From Nitrospirota bacterium (lineage in GTDB: Bacteria; Nitrospirota; UBA9217): DNA of 64,000 nucleotides. The position numbers and the translations under genes are program-made. The stretch covers positions 832,001 to 896,000 of the forward strand of contig CAWBNQ010000001.1 in the NCBI GenBank assembly GCA_963790205.1, given 5' to 3'. Below, in pieces: positions 50,679-59,679 of this stretch (its first letter is position 1; every line of letters begins with the position of its first letter). The notes under the pieces were generated by a model. That model was given only the letters and a program-made list of their open reading frames with translations, did not search any database and had not been told where the DNA came from.

Positions 50679-50814
50679 AATTCAATCTCCTTTCACGATA
50701 GTAAAAAAGAGCGTATAAAAGTACGTAACGGACTAATTTCCTCAAATTATACCGCAAAAAAACGCTGGTCATAAAAGCTTCGCAATGGCACGCTTTTTCA
50801 GGGAGGGGGGCTTT

Positions 50815-51223
50815 TCGGGATTCACGATGAATGCGCCTCTCAGCGCATTTCCTGAAGGCTCGTCATGGACTCCGAAAAGACATGAGCGTTGCCGTGCGAT
50901 TGGATTCCCATGGGATTTTCGGCTTTCTCAAGCATCTTCTCGTGTCGGTGCCGGGTGAGATGGACGAATTTGGTATCGGTGCTGACCGTAATGACGTCGG
51001 CCCCGGGTTCTTAAATTCCTCGTGCTGTTCTGCCAGAGCAGCGAACTCGGTTGCATGGACAAAGGTAACGTCAACAGGATACAAAAAAGATGATCCATTT
51101 TTTCGCAATTTTCTGTGCGGCAGGGCCGATTCCGCCGAAACCACCTTGTGTTGGTTCAAAAGTGTCGAGCTTGAAATCCGGAACACTCTGACCAACTTGC
51201 ATGGCGCAGCAATCACTTGACAT
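50815..51223 (-). pseudogene. Decayed AhpC-type peroxiredoxin
   Basis: Across several frameshifts: VGQSVPDFKL..KWIIFF / YPVDVTFVHATEFAALAE / ADVITVSTDTKFVH / ALRGAFIVNPE; peroxidatic position reads His; 3' part missing. Confidence 0.8.
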
Positions 51224-51231
51224 ATTAAAAC

Positions 51232-51309
51232 GTCGAGCGGCACGACGGACGCATCTGGGTCGAGTCCGACCCGGGCAAGGGATTTACCTTTTATTTTACG
51301 GTCCGGTAA
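51232..51309 (+). pseudogene. Orphan 3' end of a histidine kinase gene
   Basis: VERHDGRIWVESDPGKGFTFYFTVR*, closely similar at DNA level to 46997-47074. Confidence 0.7.
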
Positions 51310-51525
51310 TAGCGGACAGCGAAGAAGACGCCGAACCTCATGTCTCGGGAGCAGATCACATCCTTGATACTAAAAGCATCGTTCAGGACCGGTGTCCAGC
51401 GGCCGATTTTTTGAATGCCGCTGCCTCACCATAATGGCGCTGCTATAAGTTGCTTGTGCTTGCCTATTACAACCGTAAATACGCCGGTTTCTTAGTTGCT
51501 AATATATGAAACGATAAAACGTGTG

Positions 51526-51741: not shown

Positions 51742-51990
51742 ATGTCAGTCAAAACTGCGACACCAGATCAGATGTTGGACACGCTTGGAAGGGTCTGTCC
51801 CTATCCGCTGCTTCTAACAAAGAAGGCGCTCGAGAAACTGGGGAGCGGCCAGACGCTGAAGGTCCTCTGCGACGCCCCGGCATCGGCCGAGGACAGCATC
51901 CCGCGCTACTGCGAGAAGAACTGCTTCGCGTTCGAGGCCGTGAAGCTCGAAGACAAGGGCATGTGGGAGCTCTACGTCAAGAAACCGTAA
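51742..51990 (+). CDS. TusA-family sulfur carrier (YeeD-like, CPYP)
   Basis: AAGGAGG RBS; LDTLGRVCPYP..KKAL..L..G..LKVLCD. Confidence 0.92.
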   Translation: MSVKTATPDQMLDTLGRVCPYPLLLTKKALEKLGSGQTLKVLCDAPASAEDSIPRYCEKNCFAFEAVKLEDKGMWELYVKKP

Positions 51991-52074
51991 CGGATCATCG
52001 GGCGGGAAACGGTTGGACCCGCCGGTATCCGGTGCAAAAAATACGAAAGGTAAAACCATAAGGAGGGGGAGAGA

Positions 52075-53160
52075 ATGGTTTCTACAATAGGGTTTATCAT
52101 ATCCGGCCTGCTCATCGGGCTGGCGTTCGGTTATGTTTTGCAGCGCGGTCGGTTCTGCGTGAACTCCGCGTTCCGGGAGGTGCTTTTTCAGGACTACACG
52201 ATGCTTCGTGCGTATCTTCTTGCCGTGGCAATAACGATGATCGGCGCCAATCTGATCGAGGACATGGGCTGGCTCCAGCATGTCAGTGAGACCGGGGTCA
52301 TGGTGACGGGAACGCTCTACCGCCAGGGCTTTGCGCCCTATGCGAACATCATCGGAGGATTCATCTTCGGCATGGGCATCGTGCTTGCCGGCGGCTGCGG
52401 GAGCGGCATCCTCTACCGCGTCGGAGAAGGGAACCTTGCCTATGTATTGGCAGTCTGCGGGTTCTTCTTCGGCATCGCCATAATGAGGTTTGGCTTTCTC
52501 AAACCTGTCTTTGACGCCCTGACGTCCTATCAGGTGTTCGTCGGCGGGGACCAGGTCCCGACGCTCTACAACGTCACCGGCATCAACAAGTGGATCATCA
52601 TCGCAGTGGTCGCGGCGCCGATCTTCTATTTTGTGTTCCAGGGAAAACCGTTCCAGAAGGCCAAGAAGGGCTACTCGTGGTCGCTCGCCGGACTCCTGGT
52701 GGGCATCATCGCCGTGGCCGCGTTCTGGGCCTCGGACCATTTTACCGGAAGGGCGCGCGGGCTCTCGTTCACCGGACCGGTCCGCGAATTCTTCCTCGCT
52801 GTGTTATTCGGGAACTCCCAGGTCCCGGCTCCCGAGGCTCATACGTTCCTGGGCATCACGATGTCCTGGAGCGCGCTCTACGTGCTGACAGTGCCGATCG
52901 GCGCGTTTCTGAGCGGCAAGCTCTTGAACGAGGTCAAGCTCAAGGTCCCGCCGGCCGATGAACTTTTCAAGGTGCTCCTGGGCGGGTTCCTGATGGGGCT
53001 TGGTGCACAGCTGGGCGGAGGCTGCAACATCGGCCACAGCCTCACCGGCGTATCTACCCTCGCTGTCTCGAGCTGGGTGGCCAACATCTTTATTATCCTG
53101 GGTAATTGGATGATGGTGTATTTCCTGCTCATCAGGCCGATGAGAGATTTGGACGTATAA
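52075..53160 (+). CDS. YeeE/YedE family thiosulfate/sulfur-compound transporter
   Basis: QRGRFC, LAGGCGSG and GGGCNIG Cys motifs; multi-TM. Confidence 0.93.
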   Translation: MVSTIGFIISGLLIGLAFGYVLQRGRFCVNSAFREVLFQDYTMLRAYLLAVAITMIGANLIEDMGWLQHVSETGVMVTGTLYRQGFAPYANIIGGFIFGMGIVLAGGCGSGILYRVGEGNLAYVLAVCGFFFGIAIMRFGFLKPVFDALTSYQVFVGGDQVPTLYNVTGINKWIIIAVVAAPIFYFVFQGKPFQKAKKGYSWSLAGLLVGIIAVAAFWASDHFTGRARGLSFTGPVREFFLAVLFGNSQVPAPEAHTFLGITMSWSALYVLTVPIGAFLSGKLLNEVKLKVPPADELFKVLLGGFLMGLGAQLGGGCNIGHSLTGVSTLAVSSWVANIFIILGNWMMVYFLLIRPMRDLDV

Positions 53161-53174
53161 GCAAGACGTGCAGG

Positions 53175-53204
53175 CCGGGCAGGCCTACCTGCCCGGTTTT
53201 TTTT
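53175..53204 (+). terminator. Terminator after the yeeE-like gene
   Basis: CCGGGCAGG-CCTA-CCTGCCCGG TTTTTTTT. Confidence 0.8.
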
Positions 53205-53329
53205 GACTCAAAAATAAATAAAACACTTGTTATAATGTTAAAAAAATGATAAGCTTCGGGCACCTGATCTCGTCAGGACAATAATAAGAATAAGTCGCTA
53301 ATATTATTATTTATAAGGAGGTGATTTTC

Positions 53330-53635
53330 ATGGCAACTGAGATGCTGGGTATCATGGTAACGAAGTACGAGAACCTGGACCATATCGCGGGCGTTGTGAA
53401 AGCGGCGCGGGCGGCGGGTAAGTCGGTGACGCTTTTCATGACCGACGCGGGCGTTCGCTTCACCACAGACCCGAAGTTTCTCGAACTGATGAAGGTAGGC
53501 GGCGTGGAGTTCTCCTGCTGCGACCACAGTTGCGAGCGGGTCGGGCTGCACGACAAGACCGAAGGCATATCATACGGCAGCCAGTACAACAACGCGGGCA
53601 TGCTGCACGACAGCGCGAAAGTGCTGGTGTTCTAA
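53330..53635 (+). CDS. DsrE-family sulfur relay protein
   Basis: AAGGAGGT RBS; V.LFMTDAGV, SCCDHSC, GSQY, D..KVLVF. Confidence 0.85.
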   Translation: MATEMLGIMVTKYENLDHIAGVVKAARAAGKSVTLFMTDAGVRFTTDPKFLELMKVGGVEFSCCDHSCERVGLHDKTEGISYGSQYNNAGMLHDSAKVLVF

Positions 53636-53660
53636 CAATCCAAAAGACAGGAGTATACCG

Positions 53661-53939
53661 ATGGGTGATACCAAAAAAATAGCAGTCATTGTCAGGGACC
53701 GGCCGGGAGAAGCGCTCCGCGTTGCGGGGGGGCTCACGCTGGCCGACGACACGATCGAAGTCTTTGTTCTCGACGGTAAACTCGACAAGAACGATCCCGA
53801 TGTCGCGACCCCGCTTGAACTGGTCGCCGAGCTCGACTTGAAAATATATTCCAATAACCCCGAAAACGGCTACGCCACGATGACCCTGGAGGAGATGTCG
53901 AAGAAACTCCTGGAGTATGATGTCGTGGTGCCGTACTAG
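53661..53939 (+). CDS. DsrF-like small protein (YTD-cluster conserved hypothetical)
   Basis: KKIAVIVR...EALR.A.GL....V.VFVLD; C-terminal YDVVVPY. Confidence 0.75.
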   Translation: MGDTKKIAVIVRDRPGEALRVAGGLTLADDTIEVFVLDGKLDKNDPDVATPLELVAELDLKIYSNNPENGYATMTLEEMSKKLLEYDVVVPY

Positions 53940-53960
53940 GAGAGAGACGGAGGCCATCTC

Positions 53961-54131
53961 ATGAAGATATTGCACATTTTGAAAAAAGCGCCGGACGCGA
54001 GCACCAGAAAGATCATTGAAGTCCATGCGGCGGGCAATCAGGTGAAAACCGTCGAGCTTTACAAGGGCGGGGTATCCTATGACAAACTCGTGGCCGATGT
54101 ATTTGCTCATGACAAGGTTTTTTGCTGGTAG
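53961..54131 (+). CDS. 56-aa DsrH/TusB-like protein (missed by the ORF track)
   Basis: GGAGG RBS; MKILHILKKAP...SYDKLVADVFAHDKVFCW. Confidence 0.78.
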   Translation: MKILHILKKAPDASTRKIIEVHAAGNQVKTVELYKGGVSYDKLVADVFAHDKVFCW

Positions 54132-54223: not shown

Positions 54224-54257
54224 AAAAAACCGGTCCTGTTGAAGGACCGGTTTTTTC
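54224..54257. terminator. Bidirectional terminator between the converging sulfur operons
   Basis: AAAAAACCGGTCCT..AGGACCGGTTTTTT. Confidence 0.85.
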
Positions 54258-54287
54258 GTGTTCCCTGTATGGTTATGGTACGCGGGC

Positions 54288-54761
54288 TTAAATGAAAAGA
54301 TTGATCTGAGAATCAGCCGCCACATCCAGCCACGTGGCCGCGCCGCCGAACTCAACGCCGTCGATGATGTTTTCCTGCTTGACGCCCATCACGTCCATGG
54401 TCATCTGACAGGCGATGAGCTTCACGCCGCTTTCCTTGGCAAGCTCAAGCAGCTGGCCGATCGTCGCAACGCCGTGCTTTTTGAACATGGACTTCATCAT
54501 GGCACCGGCAAAAGCCTGCATGCCCGGCAACGCTGCAACGAGCGCTGGAACAGGCACCGGCATGGGCATGGCGGGATTTCCCAGGGGGGAGATTTTAAGA
54601 CTGTCCGCGTTCCCTTTTTTAATCAGCTCAAGCCCGTAGAATGTAAAAAATATGGTCACGTCAAAGTCCATGGCTGCGGCCGTGGTGGCAAGGATCAGAG
54701 GAGGATAAGCCATGTCCAAGGCGCCCTTGGACGCGATAATCGTCATTTTTTTCTGTGCCAT
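54288..54761 (-). CDS. DsrE2-type sulfur carrier
   Basis: KG.LD.AYPPLILA, FFTFYGL, IACQMTMD.MG. Confidence 0.88.
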   Translation of the reverse strand: MAQKKMTIIASKGALDMAYPPLILATTAAAMDFDVTIFFTFYGLELIKKGNADSLKISPLGNPAMPMPVPVPALVAALPGMQAFAGAMMKSMFKKHGVATIGQLLELAKESGVKLIACQMTMDVMGVKQENIIDGVEFGGAATWLDVAADSQINLFI

Positions 54762-54776
54762 TGCGGATGATCTCCT

Positions 54777-55019
54777 TTATGCGGTCTTTTTAATGTAAAA
54801 CGTGAACGTTCCCGAGCTTTCCTCCACACTCAAAATCTCATTCCCCGTTCTCTTTGCCCAGGACGCCATATCGTTCTTTGACCCCGGGTCCGTTGTTAAG
54901 ACTTTTAAAACCTGGTCCTTTGCAAGCGCTTCCACGGCCTTCTTGGTTTTCAAAATCGGCAGCGGGCAGCTTAATCCCTTTGCATCGAGCACTTGATCGA
55001 CTTTCATATCTGCTGACAT
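54777..55019 (-). CDS. tusA: TusA-family sulfurtransferase (CPLP)
   Basis: GGAGGT RBS; LDAKGLSCPLPILKTKK, TDPGS..D. Confidence 0.9.
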   Translation of the reverse strand: MSADMKVDQVLDAKGLSCPLPILKTKKAVEALAKDQVLKVLTTDPGSKNDMASWAKRTGNEILSVEESSGTFTFYIKKTA

Positions 55020-55042
55020 ATCAGTCACCTCCTTCGCAATAA

Positions 55043-55954
55043 CTATTTCTTTCCCCCTGCGGCCTGCGTCAGGGCTTTACGGATCGCTTCGGGGCTCTTC
55101 ATGATGTCCATGAAGCTGTGGCTTCCCATCATGGAAAGGTCCGGGAAACTGATGGCGATGCGGAACCGGGCATACAGCGCGTAGACCTTGTTGCCCGAAA
55201 CCAGCATCTCATAGGGCAGGTGCGCAGTAGACCGGATGTCCTTGAAATCGATCACGCTCATGATGAACTTGTCGTCCATATACTTGTCAGCTTCGGTTGC
55301 GCCCTTCAGGGCCACCCCGAACACCGCCTCTTTCTTCCCGGGAACATCGATCCGGTACACCTTTGTCACGCCGCCCCGCCCCGCGGCAAGGCCTGCTTCA
55401 ACGGCGGCAGCAGCTTCTTCGAAACTGCCGTATTCGGCCAGCACACTGGGCTCATTAAAATATTCCATTCCGAACATGTAGTGATAGGACCGAAGTTTTT
55501 TGGCCGTCAGACCCTTTGCGCCGAATTCCTCTTTTTTGCCGAGGGCCGCGGCAAGCTTTGCGGCAACGCCGGTCAGGTCGCCCTGCATGCGGTAAGCATT
55601 GGCCATGTAGACGGGGTTCGTGTACGCTACCTGCACTTCATTCTTCACCCGGGTAACCGAAACGCGGACTGCCGCCCCGAACCCGCCGAATTCGGATTTC
55701 TCCGCATTGCTCTTCAGTTCGTTATTCGTTGTAACGATGACAACGGCATCGGGATACGGCGTGTACTCCCCGGCTATGGTGAACCCCTGTTCCGTGAGGG
55801 CGGACTCGACGGCAGTTGCCTTTTCCGCCACCGTACCGGGGCCGAGGGACCCGAGAACAAACGGCTTCAGGAGCGCTTCATCAGCACCGGCGGAGCTCAA
55901 TAAGAAGATCACAAGCAACGATGCCAACGTCAGTCTTTTCAATACCGTCTTCAT
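55043..55954 (-). CDS. Periplasmic conserved hypothetical protein
   Basis: Sec signal peptide; YHYMFGMEYF, AHLPYEML and RFRIAISFPDLSM blocks; no Cys. Confidence 0.85.
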   Translation of the reverse strand: MKTVLKRLTLASLLVIFLLSSAGADEALLKPFVLGSLGPGTVAEKATAVESALTEQGFTIAGEYTPYPDAVVIVTTNNELKSNAEKSEFGGFGAAVRVSVTRVKNEVQVAYTNPVYMANAYRMQGDLTGVAAKLAAALGKKEEFGAKGLTAKKLRSYHYMFGMEYFNEPSVLAEYGSFEEAAAAVEAGLAAGRGGVTKVYRIDVPGKKEAVFGVALKGATEADKYMDDKFIMSVIDFKDIRSTAHLPYEMLVSGNKVYALYARFRIAISFPDLSMMGSHSFMDIMKSPEAIRKALTQAAGGKK

Positions 55955-56042
55955 GTTGCCTCCCTTGCGAAAAATTAAGGGCTATAGTTTCCCATAGCCC
56001 TTAATCTCATTATCATCAGCTGTTTCGGTTTATCGTTCTCAC

Positions 56043-57380
56043 TTAGAACCGGTAACTGTACATCACCTGGGCATTGGTCTGGTAGTGTGATACCGTGATC
56101 CCATCAGGGGTTGTGTCATGGACTTTCGGCGCATAGGTGAACGAAGCGTCAACGCTCGACGCCTTGGTCAGCATATATCCCGCGCCGACCATATAGTGGT
56201 TCTTAATGGTAGCCGGGAAGAGCGCATTCAGATACGTATCAGGGATCGGGTTGCGGGAGAGGTTCGCGCCCGCGCGCACGGTGAAGGGCTCGGTCACCTT
56301 GTAGCCTAAGCCGAACTCATACACGGTCTGGTTCTTCCAGTTCTGCGGCAGAGCAAAGTTGATTGCCGTGGGAGCTCCGAATACTCCGCCCTCGTATTCC
56401 ATCTTGAAGCTTTTCATGACGTCCTTCCATTCAATGAACTTGATGTCCGCGACGATCATGAGGTCCTTGGTGGCATTCCATGCCGCGCCGGCCCCATAGG
56501 TCGCGGGCCACTGAAAGTCCCGCACGATGATCGTGCCGTTTCCAACGAGGCCAGCGCCTGCTGCGCTCAAGTTAGCGCCGTTGCCCTTGGTCGTCAGATC
56601 GCTCAAGTCGGTCTTTGTATGGTACGTGGCGCCCACGGTCAAGTCAGGGGTGATCTTGTAGGTAGCCCCGATCTTCGCGGCCACGCCATCGCCCGTGGCC
56701 GCGCCGTTGAAATTGCCGCCGCCCGTAAAGTCGATACGCGCCCAAGGTGCGCCGGCCAAGGCGGGAAGAGCAGCGCATCCGGCGCCACCGCAACCGGTTA
56801 CCATGCTCCCCAGTTGTTTGCCCGAGGCGGCCATCTCGAGATCAAGGGACGCCCAAACATAATCGATGCTGCCGCCGATGGTAAGGTTCGGCGTTGCGTT
56901 ATAAGCGATCGGGAAAATGACCCGCCCGACACCGAGCTCCGAACGCACTTCCTGGCCCGAGCCCATTGCCATGAATGAATTCGCGTCATAATCCGTGCCC
57001 ATGCCGCCCTGGGAAAACATGCCAACGCCATAGGTGACGTCCCCGGTCTTTTTCGCCAATCCGAATGCCGGCATGAAAAAAGCGTCTGCCGACGATTTGG
57101 CGTCTGGCGCTCCGGGCATGCTGGACGTGATGTGGGGTCCCAGGTATCCGAAATCCACGTCGAGCCGGTCGCCCTCGGGCATCAGGCCGAGCGTCGCGGG
57201 GTTATTCATCATCGCCGCTGTGCCGTTGTCATAGGCGAAGGACGCGCCGCCCATACCCGTCGCGACCGGACCGTACCCCTCGAGGTTCATACCGTTCGTC
57301 GCATGGACGGTTGAAGCAAAAAACAGAGACACAACTGCGAGAACCACCGGGTAAAACACTGCTAAATTCTTTTTTTTCAT
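56043..57380 (-). CDS. FadL/OmpP1-family outer-membrane channel
   Basis: Signal peptide; ATNG..LEGYG....GMGGA, NNPA hatch motif; C-terminal YSYRF. Confidence 0.9.
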   Translation of the reverse strand: MKKKNLAVFYPVVLAVVSLFFASTVHATNGMNLEGYGPVATGMGGASFAYDNGTAAMMNNPATLGLMPEGDRLDVDFGYLGPHITSSMPGAPDAKSSADAFFMPAFGLAKKTGDVTYGVGMFSQGGMGTDYDANSFMAMGSGQEVRSELGVGRVIFPIAYNATPNLTIGGSIDYVWASLDLEMAASGKQLGSMVTGCGGAGCAALPALAGAPWARIDFTGGGNFNGAATGDGVAAKIGATYKITPDLTVGATYHTKTDLSDLTTKGNGANLSAAGAGLVGNGTIIVRDFQWPATYGAGAAWNATKDLMIVADIKFIEWKDVMKSFKMEYEGGVFGAPTAINFALPQNWKNQTVYEFGLGYKVTEPFTVRAGANLSRNPIPDTYLNALFPATIKNHYMVGAGYMLTKASSVDASFTYAPKVHDTTPDGITVSHYQTNAQVMYSYRF

Positions 57381-57536
57381 ATCACCCTCCCCCCCTTATT
57401 TAGGAAACGTTCTCTTTGACAAGTTTCACAAAATACGGCCCTTGAGGACCGTCTCGTAGAGGTTTGTTAAGGAACTCCTCAGTCTGTTCCTGTTAACGAA
57501 GAGTCCCCCTCGGCACGGAATACTACTAATTCATAG

Positions 57537-57647
57537 GGTACGCGATTAATAAATATGATGTCATTAAACGACGCAATTATTTCCAAGTTACACGGTTAAC
57601 AAGTTATGAAGGTACGCAATTATGTATTAAAGCTATTTTTTTGTCAA
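57537..57647 (-). promoter_or_regulatory. Promoter and three repeated operator-like sites of the FadL operon
   Basis: TTGACA(57647-57642)-N17-CATAAT; ACGC(A/G)ATTA repeated at about 57540, 57571 and 57614. Confidence 0.55.
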
Positions 57648-57953: not shown

Positions 57954-58766
57954 TTATTTTTTCGCGGTGGGAGGAGACGGCACGTTCGAGCCGTGGCATT
58001 CCGTGCAATTCTGCTGTGCCGTGATCCCGACGCTTCCGGCGGGAGCCCAGTCGGCTTTTGAAACATACTTGCCGTCCTTCCAAACATTCAAATCCTGAAC
58101 GAGCTTATAGGCAACACTTGCCGCGACCCGCGCACACCGGTCCTTCCGTTCCGGACTGGCAAGGGCATAGCCGGATGCTTTCATCCATTTACCGACCGAT
58201 ACATGGCAGAGAGGCGACTGGCTTGTCGTCTGTATGATCTTTGTTTTTTGTTTCGGCTCCTGGGGAGTATATACCGGAAGCGGTGTTCCCGAATACCACT
58301 GCAGCATTTCCGATCCGATCAAGGCCCCATTTTCGCACTCCGGTCCCGCGATACGGGGGCCGATGATCATATTGCTGACAATATTGGCGCCCGCATTGGA
58401 GCCGCATACCGTTCCCCATCCTACCATGCCGCCTTCCAGAAAAACGAAAGCGTCTCCCGGGAATGACTTATAGGGCTCGCCCACTTTTTCACGGAGCTGG
58501 CTGAACACGCTGTTGATGACTGCGGCTCCGCAGAACACGCGGTACCATTCATTGTAAGCGATGTCGCTGGTCTTCTGCGGGTCCAGTTTCACGTACGGCC
58601 ACGGCCACTTCTCCGTCGGCCCGCCCAGGGCCTCCGCCCTTGGCACCAGCCCAGGCGCTACTGACGCGAGCGCGGCGAGCCCCGCTGCCCCGAGCGCGCA
58701 TTTCCCCGCGCCGATAAGAAGACCTCTCCTGGTCAACTCCGAATCAACTTTCTTCTCGCATTTCAT
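57954..58766 (-). CDS. Split-Soret cytochrome c-like protein (C-GCAxxG-C-C family)
   Basis: Tat signal TRRGLL; FC, GG..GWGTVCG, LCHVSV.KW, RCAR, C-terminal CTECH; GAGGAGG RBS. Confidence 0.8.
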   Translation of the reverse strand: MKCEKKVDSELTRRGLLIGAGKCALGAAGLAALASVAPGLVPRAEALGGPTEKWPWPYVKLDPQKTSDIAYNEWYRVFCGAAVINSVFSQLREKVGEPYKSFPGDAFVFLEGGMVGWGTVCGSNAGANIVSNMIIGPRIAGPECENGALIGSEMLQWYSGTPLPVYTPQEPKQKTKIIQTTSQSPLCHVSVGKWMKASGYALASPERKDRCARVAASVAYKLVQDLNVWKDGKYVSKADWAPAGSVGITAQQNCTECHGSNVPSPPTAKK

Positions 58767-59168
58767 TTCGCGCACCTCCTCTAGGGTTTTTATTACTGTC
58801 CTGGAAAACCTGGACGCTGCAAAGAACCACGTGAAGACACGAGAGCTCTCTTGATACCCGCGACCTGAATTGATCATTGCTCCCTATTGACTATAGCAGA
58901 TATTTTTGAGACAAAACGATACTTTTTGCACCGTCCGTGTCACGTTATCTAAAGAGCAATACAGCGATAAAAGCGCTTCAAACGGGCATAAGGCGTATAT
59001 TTTTGTCCCTCACTGATCCCTAAGAAAATCAGGAGATAAAAAAATAGGAGCAAAGGCCGCAACCCCCGTCATAAACTCTCATTATGGCGCAATGAGAGAT
59101 TTTAATAGGAACGGCGGCAGCGCGAGGACGGCCTGTCAAATAATTTTTTAACATCTGAAAAACGAGTA

Positions 59169-59430: not shown

Positions 59431-59679
59431 ATGGCATTGAAAGATGAAGCACCGAAAGAAACGCTGGATACTCTTGGAAGGGTCTGCCCTTATCCGCTCC
59501 TGTTGACCAAAAAGGCCCTGGAAAAACTCGGAAGCGGCCAAATGCTCAAGGTGCTCTGCGATGCCCCTGCGTCCGCAGAGGACAGCATCCCGCGGTACTG
59601 CGAGAAGAACAAATTTGCCTTCGAGTCCGTGAAGGTCGAAGACAAGGGTATGTGGGAGCTCTTTATCAAGAAAGCGTAG
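59431..59679 (+). CDS. Second TusA-family sulfur carrier (YeeD-like paralogue)
   Basis: Nearly identical to 51742-51990 (LDTLGRVCPYPLLLTKKALEKLGSGQ). Confidence 0.93.
   Translation: MALKDEAPKETLDTLGRVCPYPLLLTKKALEKLGSGQMLKVLCDAPASAEDSIPRYCEKNKFAFESVKVEDKGMWELFIKKA

Follow-up and report, generated by a model that had tools for sequence, protein, structure and literature searches.

We describe a four-gene operon in which an outer-membrane channel of a known family, FadL, stands in a new, sulfur-linked setting together with an uncharacterised partner. The operon lies in a 64,000-nucleotide (nt) stretch of a Nitrospirota genome, here called the window (assembly GCA_963790205.1, contig CAWBNQ010000001.1, positions 832,001 to 896,000, forward strand), and encodes in order of transcription the channel, a predicted periplasmic protein of 303 amino acids (aa), and the sulfur carriers TusA and DsrE2. 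The module is strongly tied to dissimilatory sulfur oxidation and is conserved across phyla; the feature is genuine and not a chance arrangement. That it serves sulfur metabolism in some way is very probable. Our preferred reading, which we hold at slightly less than even confidence, is that the operon forms an envelope module in which zero-valent sulfur passes inward through the channel, is collected in the periplasm, and reaches TusA and DsrE2 via YeeE. The module is a likely candidate route for water-insoluble sulfur over the outer membrane because relatives of the 303-aa protein are found almost only in sulfur oxidisers.

Distribution and gene neighbourhoods

Two genome samples were scored, both of which contain kin and incomplete genomes; since kin are not independent, no weight is given to P-values. 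The class sample held 301 genomes from the class of Sulfuricella sp. T08 and was reduced to 299 by removing the seed and an unscored genome (G382), and the family sample held 121 genomes from the family of Ca. Desulfobacillus (G041). We found that the 303-aa family was present in 61 of the 118 class-sample genomes with dsrA or soxB, compared to 2 of the 181 genomes without them. In the family sample it occurred in 17 of 31 dsrA-positive genomes and in 1 of 90 dsrA-negative ones, the single exception carrying soxB. For the channel clade, all ten family-sample genomes matching at E ≤ 1e-120 were dsrA-positive, versus two of eight in the weaker tier, the cut between tiers having been set where the data showed a gap. 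This clade is enriched in sulfur metabolisers without being confined to them.

We then analysed the genes around the 303-aa gene in GTDB genomes, using the best 80 of 578 loci, which were mostly labelled Sulfuricella, Sulfuritalea, Rhodocyclaceae, Gallionellaceae or Burkholderiales. Within 8 kb of the 303-aa gene, FadL was found at 39 loci, DsrE2 at 28 and TusA at 25; a core sulfur gene was present at 54 loci, and neither a sulfur gene nor FadL at 16. The results revealed three recurrent orders: soeABC-tusA-dsrE2-fadL-303, rhd-tusA-dsrE2-(lipoate genes)-fadL-303, and dsrLJOPN-DUF4202-cysG-303 without fadL. The 303-aa gene ends the last of these runs in Gallionellaceae loci (L066-L111), often before petABC, and DUF4202 is a constant, uncharacterised member of it. 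The channel gene was directly upstream of the 303-aa gene in 16 of 18 family-sample loci and no more than 1.5 kb away in 21 of the top 30 class-sample loci. In two genomes (G043 and G045) tusA-dsrE2-fadL occupied a site apart from the 303-aa gene.

Neighbourhoods of the window's FadL clade were drawn from the best 80 of 322 metagenome loci, 44 of which had at least 3 kb of flank. Among these 44, 27 carried a sox, soe, yeeE, tusA, dsrE or rhodanese gene, and 12 had a partner of the DUF302 type, the fold found below in the 303-aa protein; some partners were of the tandem form and others had one DUF302 domain. Gene order was identical to that of the window at L187, L194 and L195. A Pfam scan of 60 of the 99 unassigned neighbours contained no hydrocarbon oxygenase, and a CoA transferase was among the neighbours seen at a single locus. 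Among these scanned neighbours the clustering with hydrocarbon genes that would have told against the sulfur hypothesis was not seen. The comparison of gene order that had been proposed for the operon gave a module kept across phyla, with the same gene set rearranged in another phylum. The enrichment in sulfur metabolisers on which the initial annotation of this DNA had staked its sulfur hypothesis was likewise borne out by the class sample for the 303-aa family.

Further arrangements were observed around these genes. A 208-aa CMD-Rieske fusion gene lay directly upstream of the clade's fadL at about 20 of the 80 metagenome loci (L190-L251), the two often standing behind soeABC, tauE or sulP. 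In another Nitrospirota family, with two dsrA copies, we found the order fadL-195-aa-dsrE2-fadL (L142:8040-11084, G029 C31; L143, G038 C71), the first fadL being the orthologue of the window's. The 195-aa protein has a signal-like start and no Pfam match, is unlike the 303-aa protein, and may be SCP2-like. At L144 and L145 (G037 and G028), in another family of this phylum, an RND-type system stands ahead of rhodanese genes, a distant fadL and a single DUF302 gene.

The FadL-family channel

The channel matched PF03349 with 101.5 bits (cut-off 29.7) in a Pfam profile search. Its closest relatives among solved structures were TbuX (8e-60), TodX (2e-53) and CymD, and the same search gave no match to E. 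coli FadL at E ≤ 0.01. The structure model aligned with TodX at a template-modelling score of 0.82-0.88 (mean predicted local distance difference test score, pLDDT, 73; residues 1-46 low) and predicts a 14-stranded barrel with an N-terminal plug. The earlier assignment as a FadL barrel therefore holds, on both the profile score and the TodX-like model. Sequence alignment also placed the Gly-Gly-x-Gly kink sequence of the channel on that of TbuX. When we opened five regions around plasmid matches to the channel (about 30% identity), three of them held toluene, xylene or styrene genes.

A tree of 90 sequences placed the window's FadL clade (support 0.99) as sister to aromatic channels (0.98), namely XylN, StyE and a toluene-monooxygenase channel, and put a second sulfur-linked FadL clade elsewhere. 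The supports are FastTree local values from a set without fragments and duplicate loci; a separate tree of 42 of the 90 sequences, computed without support values, had the same topology. We did not place the channel in the functional subfamily of aromatic channels: it belongs to a separate clade, no oxygenase was among the 60 neighbours scanned, and the host genome, which is 98% complete, yielded no match to TIGR03200, a marker for anaerobic aromatic-ring hydrolase. A further difference was located at the kink of strand S3. Methionine occupied this column (M127 in the window channel) in 20 of 20 and 45 of 46 sequences of the two sulfur-linked clades, compared to L, L, V and I in four aromatic channels and L in E. 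coli. Judging from the alignment, the column would correspond to Leu105 of TodX.

The 303-aa protein

The 303-aa protein has a signal-peptide-like N-terminus, as judged by eye, and contains no cysteine. It had no Pfam or NCBIfam match, with PF03625 not reached at E ≤ 0.01, and a sequence search of solved structures returned no match at E ≤ 10; a plasmid collection also gave none. Homologues were plentiful, with 4394 at E ≤ 1e-5 among 7999 candidates scored and 538 among 50%-identity representatives.

The structure model (pLDDT 95) gave residues 29-141 a TT1751-like DUF302 fold, with Z-scores of 13.1 to 1q9u and 12.9 to 1j3m at a root-mean-square deviation of about 2; the next unrelated fold scored 7.2. 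This was supported by Atlas neighbours, which were DUF302 clusters with a PF03625 match on 30-35% of the members of the top clusters, and by precomputed PF03625 matches on some close homologues. The second half of the model repeats the helix and strand order of the first, and is probably a second DUF302 domain, which would make this a tandem form; profile-profile comparison detected no internal repeat (repeat probability 1%). No pairwise similarity to a single-domain DUF302 lipoprotein of the 192-aa type was detected (E 0.86).

Across 89 homologues the conserved positions were M275 (98%), M163 (89%), H158 (61%) and H245 (54%), and no cysteine column exceeded 30%. Lacking a cysteine, the 303-aa protein cannot carry persulfide in the manner of TusA, and the candidate role of a Cys-persulfide carrier like TusA, DsrE or rhodanese was ruled out. 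Relative to 2532 filtered long open reading frames (ORFs) of the genome, its methionine content (3.9%) was at the 92nd percentile and its F/W/Y content (10%) at the 80th, so the earlier description as Met/aromatic-rich was right in direction but only modestly so in degree.

Fusion to FadL was considered for some longer homologues and rejected: among the ten scanned, DUF3313 was present in nine and a peptidoglycan-binding domain in one. An N-terminal DUF3313 followed by a long linker and the 303-aa domain was found in P0132, P0133, P0135-P0137, P0141, P0175, P0198 and P0210. In the tree of the family, the window protein nests among betaproteobacterial sequences, suggesting that the gene was transferred between phyla.

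Sulfur carriers and the convergent cluster

The two carrier genes of the operon are adjacent and each product has a cysteine. Their identification as TusA and DsrE2 stood up to profile searches (PF01206, 88 bits; NF047629, 213.5 bits with a cut-off of 210). There is no rhodanese gene directly upstream of the window's tusA-dsrE2; the 303-aa gene takes that place, which in Sulfuricella-type loci is held by rhodanese. On the opposite strand the operon converges on a YTD cluster, read as yeeE-tusA-dsrEFH type II following the available text of PMC13293266. By analogy with the labels used there, its two small ORFs are putative DsrF/H type II.

We also observed additional copies of these genes. A second tusA-dsrE2 pair lies beside dnaA (C1:575963-576672) and matches window positions 54279-54989 at 99.4% identity over 711 nt, the tusA start and upstream region being different; recent duplication, gene conversion and an assembly repeat are candidate explanations. 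The region is flanked by two tusA paralogues (59431-59679 and 51742-51990) that share 83% identity, bringing the window total to three tusA genes.

Layout of the locus and host genome

Positions of the genes and control elements are collected in Table 1. The four co-oriented genes were recovered with the positions and the gaps (88, 23 and 15 nt) given earlier, where 23 nt rests on a tusA ATG at 55019 behind a site resembling a ribosome-binding site; the GTG at 55028 chosen by the ORF caller would give 14 nt. The shared terminator with the YTD cluster was also recovered, as a hairpin between dsrE2 and the cluster that folds on both strands and can, by its predicted folding, end transcripts from either side. 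A single promoter for all four genes, as initially annotated, was sustained in part. The sigma-70-like site is the best of 15 found, with 6.8 expected, but a second hairpin with a U-run follows fadL; a single uniform transcript is not assured because this strong hairpin separates fadL from the 303-aa gene. No sigma-54 motif was found around the fadL operon, the YTD cluster or the second tusA-dsrE2 copy. The remark that no fatty-acid genes are nearby holds for the 21 ORFs annotated at 44-64 kb of the window.

Table 1. Genes and control elements of the operon and of the convergent YTD cluster (window positions)
Feature	Position	Strand	Description	Basis
fadL	56043-57380	minus	445 aa, FadL-family outer-membrane channel	PF03349
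303-aa ORF	55043-55954	minus	signal-peptide-like N-terminus, predicted DUF302 fold	structure model comparison
tusA	54777-55019	minus	TusA-family sulfur carrier, one Cys in CPLP motif	PF01206 and sequence
dsrE2	54288-54761	minus	DsrE2 sulfur carrier	NF047629 above cut-off; PF13686
sigma-70-like promoter site	57619-57647	minus	about 240 nt upstream of fadL	11/12 matches
hairpin with U-run between fadL and 303-aa gene	~55971-56008	minus	terminator-like or transcript-stabilising	z -5.2
shared terminator-like hairpin	~54224-54256	bidirectional	A-tract/stem/T-tract	folding z -3.8 and -5.0
YTD cluster tusA-yeeE-dsrE-ORF-ORF	51742-54131	plus	convergent with the operon	
YTD tusA	51742-51990	plus		83% to Pfam-confirmed copy at 59431
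YTD yeeE	52075-53160	plus		PF04143, 233 bits
YTD dsrE-like	53321-53635	plus		DsrE 21.2 bits, below 22.7 cut-off
YTD small ORFs	53661-53939, 53961-54131	plus		no Pfam or NCBIfam match
terminator-like site inside YTD cluster	53172-53199			

Upstream of fadL, a 12-nt direct repeat on the minus strand (5' ends at 57622 and 57548, 74 nt apart) is a candidate operator; one copy overlaps the -10 box, and the 4.3-Mb genome holds two other matches. A gene resembling split-Soret cytochrome c (57954-58877, minus) lies upstream of the operon, has near-identical paralogues on C9 and C10, and precedes this operon in L194 as well. Ahead of cydAB, a peroxiredoxin-like region (about 50700-51340, minus) with a weak NF040737 match appears to be broken across several frames.

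The host genome comprises 4.34 Mb in 14 contigs; homologues of 81-86% identity carry a Nitrospirota label, in keeping with its affiliation. Its sulfur genes include dsrA, dsrB, a DsrD-like gene, dsrN, dsrC, DsrE/F/H-like genes, dsrMKJOP and aprA, most of these names resting on the reading of translations together with BLAST matches. In a relative (G005) dsrA is split over C2:327037-328180, at a different place from a split in the host gene; both splits are possibly long-read or assembly errors.

Coupling between the channel and the 303-aa protein

To what extent the initial proposal of a trans-envelope relay can be kept depends on how tightly its parts are coupled. The conserved, sulfur-linked module speaks for it; tight coupling does not fit the data. 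A U-run hairpin 3' of fadL was found in 41 of 51 related pairs versus 7 of 255 shuffles, suggesting a higher level of fadL mRNA than of the message downstream. Closely related 303-aa proteins at one fixed genomic site follow channels of three different FadL clades, which argues against a specific protein interface, and each gene of the module is found alone in some genomes. The swapping of FadL clades is compatible with a channel whose cargo is released into the bilayer and picked up by a soluble protein. The parts are probably only loosely coupled, by way of the membrane, with no fixed complex between them.

Discussion

From gene order, protein families, fold, distribution and neighbourhoods we infer an inward path for sulfur. 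A TodX-like channel would let greasy sulfur, as S8 rings or uncharged polysulfanes, past the lipopolysaccharide and sideways into the outer membrane. The DUF302-fold protein would act as a carrier that collects zero-valent sulfur in the periplasm non-covalently, and the YeeE of the convergent YTD cluster may serve for crossing the inner membrane. In the cytoplasm the operon's TusA and DsrE2 would carry the sulfur as persulfide, with DsrEFH type II, DsrC and DsrAB as the putative endpoint. Lateral diffusion through FadL channels is established, as are persulfide carriage by TusA and DsrE2 and, in cable bacteria, transfer along YeeE, TusA, DsrEFH and DsrC.

A number of observations weigh against this path. 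About half of the class-sample sulfur oxidisers (57 of 118) are without the 303-aa gene, and 5 of the 21 class-sample genomes with a channel match lack both dsrA and soxB, including three full-length cases that stand among housekeeping genes. Seventeen of the 44 FadL-clade loci had no sulfur gene by the query set, and a few had lipid-type neighbours (thiolase at L244, enoyl-CoA hydratase at L249, phaC at L214 and L215). YeeE was near the 303-aa gene at only 1 of the 80 GTDB loci. Within the host's own family the 303-aa gene was found in 15 of 24 relatives and fadL adjoins it in only 2 of the 15, the other 13 proteins being 46-59% identical and in mixed contexts. The channel and 303-aa trees are incongruent, the host dsrA is split over two frames (C14:63709-64855), and the nearest characterised relatives of the channel transport monoaromatic hydrocarbons. 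Finally, the proteome table of the S0 disproportionator Desulfurivibrio dismutans, searched by name only, contained no FadL, OmpP1, DUF302 or 'outer membrane protein transport' entry; its porin RS05170 was considered as a FadL and rejected, being annotated ExtI.

The strongest competing explanation, which we judge unlikely, is that the cargo is organic and hydrophobic within sulfur metabolism, either an organosulfur compound (for example CS2, dimethyl sulfide or a dialkyl polysulfide) or octanoate/lipoate destined for lipoate-binding sulfur carriers. Organic molecules are the cargo of every characterised FadL channel in the literature covered, and a lipoate-assembly block stands immediately ahead of fadL in Sulfuricella-type loci; we take its genes to be H-protein-like, two radical SAM, a ligase and a FAD protein. 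However, the block was present at only about 8 of the 80 GTDB loci, and the host has no close counterpart, with no radical SAM match at E ≤ 1e-8 and H-protein and ligase matches of 38% and 24%, while at most loci fadL was tied to tusA-dsrE2, soe, sox or yeeE. We consider it improbable that the channel instead serves for exit or two-way exchange, releasing surplus zero-valent sulfur from the periplasm or cytoplasm. A passive channel has no inherent direction, and sox, SQR/FCSD and dsr clusters, which can form S0, are frequent neighbours of the genes. In 10 of 14 same-contig cases measured, no more than 9 kb separates the 303-aa gene from soxB. Against this, the genes are linked to those of TusA and DsrE2, acceptors in the cytoplasm, as suits an inward flow. 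In the available part of the report on Chlorobaculum tepidum (bioRxiv 10.1101/172254), the FadL protein CT2230, a possible orthologue of the window clade, was repressed on sulfide compared to S0 and thiosulfate, which fits uptake.

More improbable still is a sulfur-importing channel with a 303-aa protein that is a separate periplasmic accessory in the same regulon, for example a binder of soft metal or haem through His and Met. The missing cysteine and the conserved M163, M275, H158 and H245 are compatible with such a binder, as are the Gallionellaceae loci in which the gene follows dsrLJOPN-cysG without fadL, the terminator-like hairpin behind fadL and the incongruent trees. Nevertheless, shared regulation alone would hardly account for DUF302-fold genes of three architectures immediately adjoining fadL in lineages unrelated to one another. 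An ordinary hydrocarbon or fatty-acid channel that is incidentally next to sulfur carriers is a very remote prospect, largely refuted by profile and synteny: the sister position to XylN, StyE and the toluene-monooxygenase channel and three acyl-CoA dehydrogenase matches in the host genome speak for it, but identity to aromatic channels is only about 30%, the scanned neighbours held no oxygenase, and the gene set recurs rearranged in another phylum.

The inward sulfur module thus remains our preferred reading. A wider hypothesis, which we regard as doubtful, is that FadL channels were recruited at least three times for elemental sulfur, converging on a Met-lined lateral gate, that DUF302 proteins are cysteine-free periplasmic shuttles for S8 or polysulfane, and that together they provide a general entry step through the outer envelope for sulfur oxidation and disproportionation across phyla. 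The module names two concrete proteins for the passage of water-insoluble sulfur over the outer membrane, and it is found in about half of the sampled sulfur oxidisers, including cultured genera such as Sulfuricella. If the reading is true, FadL channels would have an inorganic substrate, DUF302 would gain its first function, and genomes with reductive-type dsr genes would gain a marker for S0 use. Passage of S0 across the outer membrane becomes directly testable, with lateral-gate mutants of the kind made for TodX as a ready-made test.

Several known systems resemble parts of the module. In Allochromatium vinosum and other sulfur oxidisers, rhd-tusA-dsrE2 forms a sulfur relay. The operon shares with it neighbouring genes of one orientation for a TusA with the CPxP cysteine and for a DsrE2 that passes the NCBIfam cut-off, but lacks the rhodanese and has in addition a channel for the outer membrane and a protein predicted to be periplasmic. 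The YTD system lies next to the operon on the other strand, an arrangement that is rare among related loci, and provides a transporter for the inner membrane and, in hosts whose dsrAB is of the reductive type, a route to DsrC. The term 'outer membrane' does not occur in the available main texts of PMC13293266 and PMC12998232, and a proteomics paper of 2026 calls the outer-membrane step of thiosulfate import unidentified (PMC13490349).

For the channel, the closest likeness is to TodX, TbuX, CymD, XylN and StyE, with which it shares the predicted barrel-and-plug fold and to which it is similar in N-terminal and S3-kink sequence, with a sister position in the tree. According to the available text of bioRxiv 10.1101/2020.05.11.088534, TodX and CymD release their substrate laterally into the outer membrane through an S2/S3 opening. 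The window channel differs in being about 30% identical, in having methionine at the kink and more of it overall (5.5% versus 2.3%), in neighbours that are sulfur genes instead of oxygenases, and in its downstream DUF302-fold partner. The initial description of the system as undescribed was too strong for the channel idea, since passage of hydrophobic sulfur chains was already proposed for CT2230 (bioRxiv 10.1101/172254); as far as the available text of that report goes, this is a one-sentence proposal without a transport test, and the co-transcribed neighbour is described as homologue-free. A Solemya symbiont paper names FadL only as a fatty-acid exporter. Searches covering Creative Commons PMC papers and bioRxiv preprints turned up none that linked a tandem-DUF302 protein to a FadL channel or that dealt with the fadL-DUF302-tusA-dsrE2 set. 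Among DUF302 proteins (PF03625; 1q9u and 1j3m), a 191-aa member is encoded in sox clusters of Thermithiobacillus, according to the available text of PMC5037610. With these proteins the 303-aa protein shares the predicted fold of residues 29-141 and the linkage to sulfur-oxidation genes, differing in that it is twice the size and has a probable second domain.

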